DNA of 64,000 bases from Gammaproteobacteria bacterium (lineage in GTDB: Bacteria > Pseudomonadota > Gammaproteobacteria > SG8-11): positions 53,585 to 117,584 of the forward strand of contig JANLTU010000196.1 of NCBI GenBank assembly GCA_031363085.1, given 5' to 3'. Shown here in pieces: positions 1-6,000 of the stretch. A program made the position numbers. Each line of letters starts with the position of its first letter. Positions within the stretch are counted from its first letter, which is position 1.

Positions 1-3000
1 TCGTCGCTGATCTCGAAGCTGCGGGCCTGCTCGCCGAAGTCAAGCCGCACAAGTTGATGGTGCCACGGGGTGACCGCACCCACGCCGTCATCGAACCGCT
101 GCTCACCGACCAGTGGTTCGTGAAAGTCGCACCGCTGGCCGAGCCAGCGATTAAAGCCGTGGAAACCGGCCAGATCCGCTTCGTACCCGACAACTGGAAG
201 AACACTTATTACGACTGGATGCGCAATATTCAGGACTGGTGCATCTCGCGGCAAATCTGGTGGGGGCATCGCATCCCCGCCTGGTATGACGCCGCCGGAA
301 ATATTTATGTCGGACGCAGCGAAGCCGAGGTGCGCGCAAAACATAAACTCGTGCCCAGTGTGACGCTTACCCAAGACAGCGACGTGCTGGACACTTGGTT
401 TTCGTCGGCATTGTGGCCGTTCTCCACACTCGGCTGGCCGGAAAAGACACCTGAACTGAAAGCATTTTATCCAACCGCAGTGCTGGTGACGGGTTTCGAT
501 ATTATTTTCTTCTGGGTGGCCCGCATGATCATGATGGGTCTGAAATTCACCGGCGAAGTGCCGTTTCACGAAGTCTATATTCACGGACTGGTGCGCGACG
601 CACACGGCCAGAAAATGTCGAAATCCAAAGGCAACATCCTCGACCCGATCGACTTGATCGACGGCATCACACTGGAAACGCTGGTGAAGAAACGCACCAC
701 CGGCCTGATGCAACCCGACATGGCCAAGCGCATCGAAAAAGCCACGCGCGATGAATTTCCCAACGGTATTCCTGCGTTTGGCACCGACGCGTTACGCTTC
801 ACTTTCGCGGCGCTGGCCTCCACCGGGCGCGACATCAACTTCGACCTGGCGCGCATCGAAGGCTATCGCAACTTCTGCAATAAACTGTGGAATGCAGCGC
901 GCTACGTACTGATGAACACCGAAGGCCAGGATGCTGGACAGGGAAGTCCGAATGCCGCGAGCGCAGGAGCGGCCACCGGCGCCCAGGGCGGCGAATTGCA
1001 ATTGAGTTTGCCGGATTGCTGGATTCTTAGCCGTCTGCAAGAAACCACCCGGCAGGTGCATGAAGCGCTTGAGCACTATCGACTCGACCATGCCGCGCAG
1101 GCAATCTACGAATTCTTGTGGAACGGCTACTGCGACTGGTACCTTGAGTTGACAAAATCGGTGCTGACTTCCGCCGACAGCACGCCCGCGCAACAACGTG
1201 GTACGCGCCATACGCTGGTGCAGGTGCTGGAGCGCGCGCTGTGTCTGGCGCATCCCATCATGCCGTTCATCACCGAGGAAGTCTGGCAACGTGTGGCGCC
1301 TTTGGCGGGTGTCAGCGGCGCCACCATCATGTTGCGCGACTACCCCAGCGTAAATGCAAAGTTGATCGACACTCGCGCCGCGACCGACATGGACTGGATT
1401 ATGAATTTCGTGCTGGGCGTGCGCAAAATTCGCAGCGGCATGAACATCGCCCCGAGTAAACCACTGCCGGTGTTGCTGCAAAATGGCTCGGCTGAAGATC
1501 AGCGCTTGCTAACCGAGAACCACAATTTCGTAGTCGCGCTCGCACGCATCGACACCATCACCTGGCTCGACGCCGCCGCGCCACCGCCGGAATCAGCCAC
1601 GGCCTTGGTCGGCGAAATGAAAGTGTTGATTCCAATGGCGGGACTGATCGACAAAAACGCCGAGCTGACGCGTTTGGCGAAAGAAATGGACCGGCTCAGC
1701 GGCGAAGTCGAACGCATCGGCGCGAAGCTGGCTAATCCCAGCTTCGCCGACAAAGCGCCTGCGGCCGTGGTCGACAAGGAACGCGCGAAATTACACGACA
1801 CGCAGTCGGCCTTAGACAAACTGCGCGAGCAACATACGCGCATTGCCGCAATGTAGCGGCTTAGGCCACCTTAACCGCACAGGCCGCTGGAAGGATGATG
1901 CGCGACTCGAACGGCCGGAATTCAGCGTCACTTGTTGACTTTTTCGTGAAGCGGATCTCGACTTTTCCACCGAGGTTCTCGACGAATTTCCGAATCGCGT
2001 CCATTCCCACACCACGACCGGAGATGTCGCTCACGTTCGCTGCAGTCGACACGCCCGACTGAAAAACCAGATCGGCCAATGCGTGGTCATTCAACTCCGC
2101 GTTGGCGTGCACCAAACCTTGTGCGGCGGCTTTTTCCTTGAGCTTGCGCAGGGCCAACCCGCGACCATCATCCGACAGCGCCAGCACTACCCCCCCGTCT
2201 TCCTCGCGCACATCCAACGTGATCGTACCCCGCTCGGGCTTGCCATGTGCCTTACGTTCCGCGCCGGTTTCAAGGCCATGATCCATGGCATTGCGGAAAC
2301 CATGCGTGAATACGTTCTTCATCACCTGTGCAACTTCGACCGCCAGACGGATGCCGTTATCTTTGATAACGATGTGCGGTGCGACCTTACCAAGTTTTTG
2401 CGCCAGTTCCGGCATCGAACGCGTGATGGCATCCAGCAGCGCGGGAATCGATTCCGTGCCGATGGCACCTGAGATTGACTTCACGGTTTTCACGGCGCTG
2501 CGCAATGCACTCACGTCATGCTCATTGACGTGCTCCAGCACGACCCGCAGCTTGTCGATCAGCATTAAATCGACATACACGCCGTCGGACGAGGTGTTGG
2601 AAAGTTTTTCCTTGTTAATCGTTGCGTAGCTTTCGATTCGCTGACGAGTACGAGACAACTCCTCCAGCATTTTGCTCTTGTCCCAAAACGAATCGAGATT
2701 CTTACGCAGCACGTCGTAGGAAGTTTCGGCTTCATGTGCCACATCGGTGATGCCCATGAATCCGTAGGTGCGCGCGTTGCCCTTGATGGTGTGCATGTTA
2801 CGGAACAGGGTCGCGACAATATCGGCCGATGCGTTGCTCGCCGCGTTAATGAGTTTTTCGTTTTCGTCCAGAAAGCGCGTAGCGTCCTTGATAAATCCGA
2901 TGAACTTGTCCTGACCGACCGACAAAATCTGCCCGATGACCTGCAACTCGGACTTCTGCTTTTCGGCCTCTGCCTGCAAGCCGCGCAACTCGGTGACGTC

Positions 3001-6000
3001 GCGCACTGTGACCATGAGTTTTTCGATGACGTCGGTTTCGCTCACAATCGGATCCCAATCGAGTTCGAGGATCTTGGTGCGCCCTCCCGACATGGTCCGA
3101 GTGAATTCATGCACTAGGCAATGGCGGTTGAAATCGAACATCATCGACTCCTCACCCAGAATTGCATCCAATGCCGCAGAGATTTGCGACAAGGCATTGG
3201 AGCCCAGATTCGTGTTCCTGAACAGCAAGTCCATGACATCCGAGTTTGCGACATTCTTGTCTTCCACAATGCTCTCCAAATACGCGGAATACTCGGGATG
3301 AATCGCGCGTCCGGGTAAAATCGTAAAGATGCCCTGGTGCATGTTCTGCAACATGTTATTAATGTCATTGGTCTTCTGTCGCAGTTCGGCGGTGCGGCTC
3401 TCGACTTTTTGCTCCAAGGTGCGATTTTGTTCTGCAATCACATTCAGCATGTGAATATTCTTGAAACTGACCACGGCGGTGCGTGCAATGGTTTCGGCAA
3501 ACTCGCGATCCGAATCGACGAATTTTACGTCGCCGACATCGCCGCAGAAATTCATGACGCCGAAAATCTCATTATTGTCGACCATCGGCACGCAGATAAT
3601 GGCTCGCGCCGAGGCATCATCGCCTAGCTGCGCTTCGAACTGATGATCTTGCGTGGTGTCCGGAATATAAATGATGCGTTTGTGTTGCGCCGCACGACCG
3701 GCGACACCCTCACCGAGCTTGAAGGTGCGCGCGTCGTGCACCGCGCTCTCGTCGCGCGCCGGCGAGTACGCTTTCACTTCCAGTAAGCTTTTCTCCGCGT
3801 TAAACAGGTAGACCGAGCCCCACTCCACATCGCAGTGAGCACGCATGGTCTTCAACGCATGCTCCAGAACTTTCATCGGATCATGCATGCTCGCCATGGT
3901 CTGGCCGGTCACATTGAGCACGCGCAGGTCATCGATCTTCTTCCTGATCGCATCGCGCATGTCGGAAAAACTGTGTGCCAAGCTGCCCAGCTCATCGCTG
4001 CGCCGCGTGTCGATTTCTTGATCCAGATGACCGTGCGCCAGTTGCGCGGCACTGGTTTTCAAGGCGTCAATCGGCGTGAGAATGGTACGTGTCAGGAAAA
4101 ACCCCACCATCACGGCGCAGACCATGCCCAGCATGATCAGCCCAGCCACAATATATTGGGTGTGGCTCACCTGAAGGGTGAGCTGCGAGCTGCTTTCGAC
4201 GCTGAAATCGTGCTGGGTCTTGACCAGTGCAGTCAAGCGATCCTGAATTTGCAGCACCAACGGCGATAAATCTTTGCGAATGATGTAAGCATCCTGGCGC
4301 CAGTCTTCGGCGCCATGGATTTTCATTACTTGCTCGGCGGCCGGCCCCCACTCCTTGAACGCCGCGTTGAAGTTTTCGAACGACGCTTCTTGCTCAAAGT
4401 TCAGCAGGCTTTTGCTGGCACCGTTGAGCTTGCTTGCATCACGCACGGCCAGCTCCATGTAGCTGCGAAAATTCTCTTTGTTGGCGTCGGCACGGAACGC
4501 AAGAAAAATGCGTAATTCGTTCAGGGCGCTGGCGACATTGGTACGTAACGAAAACATATCCAGCAGGAACTGACGACGCTCTTGGTTGGCACTCTCACCG
4601 CTTTCTGCCAACAGCATTTCTTGCAGACTTTGCAACATGGTCTGCGCACGGGGATTCACTTCGCGGCTGGCAAACCCAAGCGCCGGAACGTTCTTCGCGT
4701 CATCGCTGGCAAACACCAGCATCTGCTCCTTATAGCTTTGCAGTTTGGCAATGCCCTGCTGCACTTCGTCGACCATTTTGAACGTCGCCGCGTCGTCTCG
4801 CACAATGCGCATCGCGCTCAAGGTTTGTACCGACTGCGTGATCTTGCTCAAATTACTGACGTAGTCGTTTTTGTGCACCTGCTCCTTGCTGAGCAAATAA
4901 AAACCCAGCGAGGCGGAAGCGCGATCCAGTTGATCGACCAAGTTAAGCGACAGTTCCGTGGCGGGTTGGACGTCGTTCACCAACGTGGAAAGTTTTTCCT
5001 TGTTGGCCTTCAGGCTGTTGAACGCCGTGATGCCCACCGCGACCAACAGCACCACCAACACGCCGAAACTGACCCAGATTTTTTTACGAATGGTGACTTT
5101 ATTCATCAACGCATGGACGTGAAATAACACCGCCATCCAGCGGTGAGCAAAAGGCGTCTTCGGCTGTAGACCGCTGCCGGGGGTAGTTTCCAATGTGTTT
5201 GCGTGCATACCGCAGTTGCTCCCAGAGTCAATTTCTATGACAAGCCCACTGCGCTCGCCACGGCTATGACCATTGCTTTAAGTCGTTAACCGGCAACCAT
5301 CTTCTTCACGGTTTCCAGCACGTTCGCGCCGTTGAACGGTTTCACGATCCAGCCCTTGATGCCGGCGGCTTTACCGCGTTGCTTCATGTTGGCGTCGCTC
5401 TCGGTGGTCAGCATGATGATGTTGACCGTCTTGTTGCCGACATCGCTGCGGATTTTTTCGACCATCGTCAATCCGTCCATATTGGGCATGTTGACGTCGG
5501 CGAAAATAAGTTTGATATCCGGATTGCTCGATGCCTTGGCAAGACCGTCTTTGCCGTCCACCGCCGTGATCACCGAGAAGCCATTGGTGCTGAAAAATCC
5601 GCTCACCTGACTGCGTACCGCGTCGGAATCATCGACCACCAGAATTTGTGCCATAGTTAAATCTCCGCTGATAAATCAAGTTTTTTTAAGCCACATCTTT
5701 ACAATAACTTACTAAAATAGTTCCAGTTCGCCGGACGACACCAGTTCGTTAACGCTCTGGTTGGACTCGGCATATTTCTCCGGCGACCAGTCCAGGCTAA
5801 AAATGAATTTCTCGTACATCACCACCGGCTGGAGCTTGCCCTCCGGATCGGTGAGCGTGAATTTGAAACACAATTGCGGATCGTCGGCACCGAACGAAAT
5901 ATATCTGCGCGCATGATTAATAATAATCGGCACTTCGACGCGCATCCGCCCGTGTGCTTCGGCCGTCGTCGACCCGTAACGGGTTTTGAATGCACCCCAG

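Follow-up and report, generated by a model that had tools for sequence, protein, structure and literature searches.

Can a kinase of the CheA type be driven directly by a membrane sensor to which it is fused? The question is raised by a gene on the minus strand of a 64,000-nucleotide stretch of gammaproteobacterial DNA (assembly GCA_031363085.1, contig JANLTU010000196.1, positions 53,585 to 117,584), called the window below. The gene is a single open frame at 1861..5208, stop codon included, and encodes 1115 amino acids; an identical protein exists in public data as P0001. Judged by its sequence, the product is a histidine kinase that combines a sensor of the type found in methyl-accepting chemotaxis proteins (MCPs) with a CheA-type (class II) transmitter devoid of P5. 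It belongs to a large family, and it probably works as a kinase with direct input.

The domains follow one another as transmembrane helix, helical periplasmic sensor, transmembrane helix, HAMP, GAF, helix, PAS, helix, histidine phosphotransfer domain (Hpt), P3-like hairpin and ATPase, after which the chain ends. Pfam matches were obtained to 4HB_MCP_1 (residues 38-202, E 3e-10), HAMP (371-422, E 1e-13), GAF (446-579; GAF_2 at 7e-15, GAF at 5e-14), Hpt (778-844, E 6e-10, 39.6 bits against a cutoff of 24.6) and HATPase_c (966-1088, E 3e-9), and none to HisKA, HisKA_3, H-kinase_dim, P2, CheW, Response_reg or MCPsignal. The kinase was modelled with AlphaFold from 23 relatives, with a mean predicted local distance difference test (pLDDT) of 78. 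The original prediction, made by reading the sequence alone, had the GAF domain joined directly to the Hpt. This does not hold, as the two are separated by a long helix, then a PAS domain (residues 625-737), then another helix (739-764). The layout first described was incomplete, since the conserved PAS domain and the P3-like hairpin (881-914) had been missed and the strand had been left unstated.

In the model, the Hpt is a bundle of helices 766-789, 795-815, 818-836 and 844-869, with His806 on the second of them. PDB was searched with a family profile built from 55 diverse relatives, which over the Hpt region retrieved six CheA P1 structures (1tqg at 3.6e-9, then 2ld6, 8c5v_C, 1i5n, 2lp4 and 3kyi, to 6e-4), and no other chain fell below 1e-3 except 6ff6 (BRIC1). 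H806 lies in FRNMHTIKGNARTYGF and is invariant across relatives, as are K809, H825 and E828 in both the 23- and the 55-member alignments. Their spacing of 3, 19 and 22 residues is that of H48, K51, H67 and E70 in Escherichia coli CheA. The Hpt keeps the His/Lys/His/Glu tetrad of CheA, with H806 as the presumed phosphorylation site; the kinase has no other candidate phospho-histidine motif and no receiver domain. The CheA P1 signature claimed originally is borne out by the Pfam match, by the P1 structures and by the invariant tetrad.

The ATP-binding domain contains an N box (H969/N973/H977), DDGRG (1013-1017) and GRGVGMD (1064-1070), and its N, G1 and G2 boxes are invariant across relatives. 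A single-sequence search of PDB (phmmer) returned ten CheA entries over residues 914-1097 (E 1e-25 to 6e-29) and no other kinase, together with two CheA P1 structures, weakly. Two CheA equivalogs are the only NCBIfam models to match the C-terminal third, and they do so over their P4 region. With the family profile, E values for CheA P3P4 and P4 chains were 1e-45 to 4e-60, and Foldseek laid the domain on CheA P4 structures at 30-34% identity with template modelling (TM) scores of 0.8-0.88. Used as query, the P4 segment gave no match, even at E 10, to the three HisKA-type kinases of the comparison set (P0087-P0089). The motifs from which the ATPase had been called CheA-specific are present and invariant in relatives, and among PDB kinases only CheA P4 was matched, so that this claim stands.

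Since the chain stops 2 residues past P4, P5 is absent; no Pfam CheW match was found in the kinase or in any of the 55 relatives, and tblastn detected no CheW-like domain anywhere in the window. The lack of P2 and P5 had been foreseen, and so had that of the H-box carried by the dimerisation and histidine phosphotransfer domain (DHp). Indeed, Pfam finds no P2, there is no HisKA-type match in the kinase or in the 55 relatives, and the helix following the PAS domain has no histidine. An ATPase grouping with HisKA-type kinases, a DHp H-box, or an Hpt failing its profiles had been named beforehand as observations that would speak against the prediction; each was looked for, and none was found. A reading as an ordinary HisKA kinase with a misread Hpt was likewise rejected on the profile evidence. 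The transmitter is therefore assigned, on its sequence, to the CheA (class II) type and not to the usual HisKA/DHp type.

At the place of CheA P3, the model has a hairpin of two short helices (881-893, 13 residues; 899-914, 16 residues). By hhalign it is colinear with CheA P3 except for 9 deleted residues, column confidence being low, and alignments of the family profile to the P3P4 chains 1b3q and 4xiv start at chain residue 24-27, inside P3. Pfam H-kinase_dim matched neither the window kinase nor the 55 relatives. We call the hairpin a P3-like remnant (P3') and claim no homology to P3.

Pfam searches with residues 580-841 and 837-931 gave nothing beyond the known Hpt and left the PAS domain unrecognised. 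Modelled alone from 16 relatives, residues 625-737 form a beta-alpha-beta domain (pLDDT 90.9) whose top Foldseek matches are LOV/PAS domains (probability 1.0, TM-scores 0.65-0.77); a profile search of PDB gave the PAS structure 3mxq at E 0.0056. Because the domain model superposes on LOV/PAS domains, we assign it the PAS fold; helices flank it at both ends in the model, as in dimeric PAS kinases. A reading of this domain as P2 was rejected, as it sits upstream of the Hpt and superposes on LOV/PAS. The connecting helix before it carries the motif ERTxxLRxKTNDIxxMLQNM, conserved in the 55-member alignment. The helix after it has a near-invariant ELxxIGQIL and can be aligned, weakly, with the first part of ThkA's DHp helix (3a0r, E 0.0015); the H-box is absent, and the helix may be a vestige of DHp.

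The periplasmic region of about 280 residues is modelled as helices only (pLDDT 80-92) and is bigger than a single four-helix bundle. Residues 11-403 share 27-33% identity over about 350-385 residues with the sensor and HAMP of true MCPs (P0071-P0075), which run on into a true MCP signalling domain. The original assignment of an MCP-style sensor (transmembrane helix, helical domain, transmembrane helix, HAMP) is upheld by this identity. Exchange of the sensor-HAMP module has taken place between MCPs and this kinase family.

Is the fusion a single case? Residues 760-1115 were searched against 1.84 billion cluster representatives (clusters at 50% identity). There were 37,084 matches at E<=1e-3, the bulk of them presumably ordinary CheAs, and 2,187 at E<=1e-30. 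The layout was verified in the 150 best of the 2,187 representatives, and about 2,000 clusters are an upper estimate of family size. In these best 150, the match reaches the C-terminus or ends within about 40 residues of it, which leaves no room for P5. Ahead of the match they carry between 0 and 1,600 residues, with 0, 1, 2 or 5-8 predicted transmembrane helices. A Pfam census of the 55 relatives counted Hpt and HATPase_c in every one and CheW, H-kinase_dim and HisKA in none, along with HAMP (31), GAF (12), 7TMR-DISM (10) and also 4HB_MCP, PAS, dCache, NIT, TarH and others. N-terminal sensors are interchangeable across the family. The fusion found in the window is thus not a one-off, as up to about 2,000 clusters share its core and combine it with varying sensors.

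In the alignment of the 55 members, the conserved region already begins ahead of the Hpt, with the helix and the PAS domain. This defines a family core of about 520 residues, PAS-Hpt-P3'-P4, and the window kinase aligns with the 55 across the whole of this C-terminal core. In alignments with 26-51% mean column identity, neither the catalytic boxes nor the P1 tetrad vary, and orthologues at 48-85% identity to the window kinase are full length. A neighbour-joining tree of P4 segments places 28 core members apart from 8 P5-bearing CheAs in 99 of 100 bootstraps. On average, P4 segments of the family are 43% identical to one another, those of the CheAs 44%, and the two groups 32% to each other. The tree is unrooted, since the HisKA-type kinases that would have served as outgroup gave no match to the P4 query. 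Two P5-less sensor proteins, P0079 (HAMP-Hpt-ATPase) and P0085 (NIT-HAMP-Hpt-ATPase), have a P4 on the CheA side of this tree, which suggests a second, separate case of a P5-less sensor kinase, of independent origin. Two giants, P0091 (4858 residues) and P0179 (1950 residues), have 28 and 14 separate stretches matching the Hpt-P4 query and are presumably multi-Hpt, ChpA-like kinases.

By exact-sequence and cluster look-ups, members go by the names of HAMP-, GAF- or Hpt-domain-containing protein, or by the automatic 'sensor kinase CheA'. The family is large and unnamed, and the label CheA is wrong for its members. Among its cultured carriers are Pleionea sediminis (WP_144393851.1), Aliikangiella sp. 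G2MR2-5 (WP_196137152.1), Oleiphilus messinensis (kinase gene in CP021425.1, beside OLMES_3599) and Denitratisoma. A literature search for sensor-fused or P5-less CheA-type kinases, PMC10782961, PMC2222644, PMC12471899, PMC1747179 and a 2026 Vibrionales preprint included, found no description of them, its coverage being partial and a prior mention possible.

How does the kinase relate to known systems? With CheA (E. coli, Thermotoga maritima; PDB 1b3q, 1i58, 1tqg, 6s1k) it shares the arrangement of the P1-type tetrad and the P4-type ATPase, and a likely CheY partner and predicted CheX-type phosphatases are encoded beside it. With a P2-less CheA (P0081) it is colinear over P1-(P3)-P4, at 26.5% identity over 392 residues. 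Unlike CheA, it has neither P5 nor P2, a short hairpin stands in the position of P3, it carries its own transmembrane sensor, HAMP, GAF and PAS, and its P4 falls into a separate clade of the unrooted tree. The CheA core is defined as P1, P3, P4 and P5, and CheAs are described as having no input or sensor domain and, in a 2023 survey, as having a CheW-like domain in 100% of cases (PMC10782961). Lacking P5 and carrying an input domain, the kinase is not a CheA by current definition. Kinases of this kind fall outside the survey by the way its collection was built. Atypical CheAs, such as the split CheA3/CheA4 of Cereibacter sphaeroides and the CheA-CheX fusions of Leptospira, likewise have CheA domains rearranged, lost or fused to chemotaxis modules. 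However, they keep a CheW-like domain and receptor input, and none is reported with a transmembrane sensor (PMC10782961).

At the input side, the logic of sensor, coiled coil, PAS, helix and transmitter is shared with dimeric PAS-linked kinases (ThkA 3a0r, YF1 4gcz, FixL), and the PAS domain with its flanking helices superposes on LOV/PAS kinases. In contrast to these, the window kinase has a monomeric-type Hpt bundle and the P3-like hairpin in place of a DHp with H-box, and its ATPase is CheA-type and not HisKA-associated. By analogy, the kinase would thus be CheA-like at the level of chemistry and like a PAS sensor kinase at the level of input. The transmembrane helices, periplasmic domain and HAMP are homologous to those of MCPs with a 4HB or other helical sensor. 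The kinase is nevertheless no MCP, since it has no signalling hairpin; a separate 254-residue gene product supplies the hairpin tip only. ArcB, BvgS and GacS are sensor kinases with an Hpt too, but theirs is C-terminal and fed by an internal receiver after HisKA autophosphorylation, whereas the window kinase has neither HisKA nor receiver and its Hpt precedes the ATPase. Having no receiver, it is not an ArcB-type relay kinase, and having no H-box, it is not a HisKA kinase.

The kinase gene is the last of five, all on the minus strand, in the order mini-MCP, short CheX-like protein, pseudo-receiver-CheX protein, CheY, kinase. The first two genes overlap by 4 bases, and gaps of 25, 57 and 77 bases follow. 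These five co-directional, closely spaced genes form an apparent operon. When 1700-8500 was scanned for promoters and terminators, 1 promoter-like site came up where 4 were expected, and the terminator-like sites were weak and lay inside genes. Coordinates of all features are collected in Table 1.

Table 1. Features of the kinase gene and its partner genes, in coordinates of the window.
Feature	Position	Strand	Basis
Whole gene, sensor-fused CheA-type (class II) histidine kinase	1861..5208	-	open reading frame, Pfam/NCBIfam domains, structure model
N-terminal cytoplasmic extension, 34 residues, clade-specific	5107..5208	-	alternative start M35 at 5106; pLDDT <50
Transmembrane helix 1, residues 44-66	5011..5079	-	hydrophobic stretch IWVSFGVLVVLLVAVGITAFNSL, helical in model
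Periplasmic all-helical MCP-type sensor, residues 67-348	4165..5010	-	Pfam 4HB_MCP_1 and TarH on first part; model
Transmembrane helix 2, residues 349-371	4096..4164	-	hydrophobic stretch, helical in model
HAMP, residues 371-422	3943..4098	-	Pfam; PDB matches to HtrII and Af1503 HAMP
GAF, residues 446-579	3472..3873	-	Pfam GAF_2, GAF; PDB GAF matches
Long connecting helix, residues 580-622, start of family core	3343..3471	-	model helix 567-622
PAS-fold domain (by model), residues 625-737, family hallmark	2998..3336	-	domain model, Foldseek, profile match
PAS-to-Hpt helix, residues 739-764	2917..2994	-	model; no histidine inside
Hpt four-helix bundle, CheA P1 type, residues 766-869	2602..2913	-	Pfam; family profile; model
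Codon of His806, presumed phospho-accepting histidine	2791..2793	-	invariant in 23/23 and 55/55 aligned relatives
Short helical hairpin at CheA P3 position, residues 881-914	2467..2568	-	model, hhalign, profile alignments
CheA P4-type ATP-binding domain, residues 921-1113	1870..2448	-	phmmer, NCBIfam, Foldseek, family profile (E about 1e-48)
CheY-like single-domain response regulator, 122 residues	5286..5654	-	Pfam Response_reg 7e-24
336-residue protein, receiver-like domain then CheX-like domain	5712..6722	-	Pfam CheX 4e-11, 43.2 bits against cutoff 27
193-residue short CheX/CheC-like protein	6748..7329	-	Pfam CheX weak: E 0.0048, 17.4 bits, below cutoff
Mini-MCP, 254 residues	7326..8090	-	Pfam MCPsignal 2.5e-17, profile positions 43-95 of 172 only

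The CheY has all active-site residues (DD, D53, T83, K104) and adjoins the kinase or its partner genes in 8 other loci. It is 67-92% identical across loci whose kinases are 52-85% identical (in L005, 80% for CheY and 53% for the kinase); conservation far above that of the kinase suggests a strongly constrained downstream partner. In the 336-residue protein, the ExxN residues E236 and N239 are invariant; taken as a marker, this protein accounts for at least 1,328 clusters of equal length. The position of the acceptor Asp in its N-terminal half (6250..6722) is S, C, Y or P in orthologues, so the domain is probably a pseudo-receiver, and it could dock on the Hpt domain. The 193-residue protein aligns by hhalign with the CheX domain of the 336-residue protein (85% probability, E 6e-6) and has DxxxExxN in 7/7 sequences. 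Both proteins show the CheX/CheC fold signature and the catalytic ExxN and are predicted phosphatases.

With CheX, CheC and FliY phosphatases, the two partners share the Pfam signature of CheX (one strongly, one weakly) and an invariant ExxN; they differ from them in the receiver-like domain without acceptor Asp of the 336-residue protein and in a GxLELF tail on both. This conserved tail, G-[EAST]-L-E-[LMF]-F, occupies both C-termini (5712..5735 and 6748..6771). The longer protein of the window ends in GELELF, the pattern for the shorter one is G(A/E)LELF, and the tail was found in every locus examined: the window, L001, L005, L007, L012, L015 and L018. It looks like a docking peptide, by analogy with the C-terminal CheY-binding peptide of CheZ and the NWETF tail of MCPs. 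We know of no described CheX protein with such a tail.

The mini-MCP consists of one N-terminal transmembrane helix, a coiled coil and the hairpin tip only. The tip is canonical and conserved in 7 aligned loci. About 68 residues separate it from the C-terminus, and the protein has neither HAMP nor sensor and is too short for methylation helices; to our knowledge, no MCP length class with so short an arm has been described. The exact sequence called here is absent from the protein collection, and its start codon may be called differently elsewhere. Counting the window, the mini-MCP stands beside the kinase in 9 loci, from three bacterial groups and in several gene orders.

Further, the same four partner genes lie beside related kinases in eight other loci (L001, L005, L007, L012, L015, L018, L020, L021). 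Gene order is as in the window in L001 and L007. The set is downstream of a kinase 53% identical to the window kinase in L005 and on the opposite strand in L012, a metagenome-assembled genome of SAR324. L015 is Pleionea sediminis, and the L018 kinase has 4HB and HAMP and no GAF. L020 (Oleiphilus messinensis) and L021 (Denitratisoma) were found independently, starting from the 336-residue protein. In total, the five-gene set is conserved in members of Gammaproteobacteria, Betaproteobacteria and SAR324, its genes standing in three or more different orders. The annotated neighbourhoods of family kinases contain no CheW Pfam match. A full-length MCP gene with MCPsignal lies within a few kb of the set in L018 (2452-4245), L020 (10535-12565) and L021 (14627-16336), with a weak HAMP match too in the first two, and there is none in the window. 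In L015, two genes without Pfam matches (231 and 331 residues; 3274-4949) follow CheY on the same strand and have no counterpart by the window operon.

We consider it likely that the membrane sensor drives the CheA-type transmitter directly, without CheW or P5. The kinase would be a dimeric membrane sensor in which a periplasmic ligand, possibly joined by a second, cytoplasmic input at GAF or PAS, shifts the helical register. As in the usual dimeric PAS kinases, HAMP, GAF and the coiled coils on either side of PAS would carry this change to the transmitter, where it would set how often P4 phosphorylates His806 on the tethered Hpt. From His806 the phosphoryl group would pass to Asp53 of the adjoining CheY, and its rapid removal by the two CheX-type proteins would give a fast, chemotaxis-like signal. 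The mini-MCP would be an obligatory partner; our best guess is a membrane scaffold or regulator that contacts the kinase core or the CheX proteins, and not a sensor.

Several points weigh against this reading. H806 autophosphorylation, transfer to CheY and CheX phosphatase activity are all predictions. The P3-like hairpin is far shorter than CheA P3, which leaves the mode of dimerisation in doubt. Output is not uniform across the family, because several members have no partner genes nearby and one stands beside a regulator with REC and HD-GYP domains. Partner genes were not matched within the 8-kb flanks of L006 and L009-L011, and the family kinases of L017 and L019 have no partner set nearby. 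In L016 (8001-13420, a Rhodoferax metagenome-assembled genome), a HAMP-Hpt-ATPase kinase of the family stands before a second kinase and a REC-DUF3369-HD-GYP gene, with no set nearby; some members may thus feed cyclic-di-GMP turnover and not CheY. In known systems, the canonical MCP tip serves to bind CheW and P5, and with such a tip on the mini-MCP the pathway may not be array-independent. CheW and CheA may be encoded elsewhere in the genome, beyond the 64-kb window, and Oleiphilus is reported to have a CheA of the Tfp class (PMC10782961).

These last points lead to the most serious competitor, in which a receptor lattice is still used. As trimers of dimers, the mini-MCP would join ordinary CheA/CheW arrays or build a small lattice of its own, which the sensor-kinase controls or obeys; the fusion would then add an input, and the array would not be bypassed. 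The canonical tip kept in all 7 aligned loci, the recurrence of the mini-MCP beside the kinase and the nearby full-length MCP genes of L018, L020 and L021 are in keeping with a lattice. We nevertheless think it unlikely: the kinase has no P5 and a complete sensor path of its own, no CheW was found in the window or in annotated neighbourhoods, and the mini-MCP has no sensor or HAMP and too little helix for methylation sites. The original prediction had stated that the fusion would bypass the array. The missing P5 and CheW-like domain agree with this, but the claim was over-confident given a conserved tip-only MCP in the apparent operon.

Far less probable is that the Hpt is a relay or docking module and the protein mainly a sink for CheY~P, a phosphatase platform together with CheX, or the substrate of another kinase. 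Hpt domains of ArcB-type kinases are relay modules, and the neighbouring genes supply two phosphatase-like proteins and a pseudo-receiver. Yet the kinase has no receiver that could feed the Hpt, the Hpt matches structures of CheA P1 only and not relay Hpt domains, and the kinase has an intact P4 of the P1-phosphorylating type. We give hardly any credence to a decayed or truncated CheA, be it a pseudogene, the product of an assembly break or a case of recent P5 loss, with no kinase function of its own. Two of the four CheA core domains are affected, P5 being absent and P3 apparently reduced (core according to PMC10782961). Against decay, the frame is intact over 1115 codons and ends 2 residues past P4, with the end of valS 4 bases away; the best 150 representatives end likewise, the orthologues are full length, and the catalytic boxes and tetrad stay invariant at the column identity given above. 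Truncation was rejected on this conservation.

The remaining features concern the surroundings of the set. The 34-residue N-terminal extension of the kinase and an upstream Shine-Dalgarno-like GGAG/GGGA are kept in the three closest loci (L001, L003, L007); the extension is missing in L004 and L009, which have a stop codon upstream, and more distant relatives begin at the equivalent of M35. The valS gene (54..1856) converges on the kinase gene. It also lies a few kb from the kinase in Oleiphilus messinensis (L020, 1-2383), a hint of shared local synteny. The rest of the 64-kb window contains unrelated genes, with no chemotaxis or motility genes. One very large open reading frame there, at 8401..12813 (1470 residues), encodes a metalloprotease of the M4 (thermolysin) type that carries a MAM-like domain and modules of about 100 residues repeated in a long row; another, of 1469 residues, lies at 52959..57368. 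The genes clustered at 16940..21680 (ABC_tran, an ABC-2 membrane protein, a GldG-like ABC_transp_aux and DUF4340) resemble the gliding-associated GldA/F/G transporter set.

A broader reading, which we put forward tentatively and would not yet lean on, is that the kinases and their four partners are a distinct, widespread chemosensory lineage, free of CheW and P5 and a relic between PAS kinases and array-bound CheA. Input would be wired into the kinase through PAS, and the tip-only MCP would have a non-sensing role. The relic part is proposed because the post-PAS helix resembles the start of a DHp helix and because the P4 clade is separate. If true, this would have a bearing on the origin of chemotaxis from two-component systems.

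Textbook CheA cannot sense by itself and is switched only inside arrays of receptors and CheW; in the window kinase, the P1/P4 engine is placed in a transmembrane sensor. The universal CheW domain of CheA surveys follows in part from how CheAs are collected. The five genes would make up a conserved pathway, and the role of a chemoreceptor tip where its usual binding partners are missing is a puzzle. With cultured carriers in Oleiphilus messinensis, Pleionea sediminis, Aliikangiella and Denitratisoma, these questions are testable, and the family would offer a natural array-free system for studying the regulation of class II kinases.

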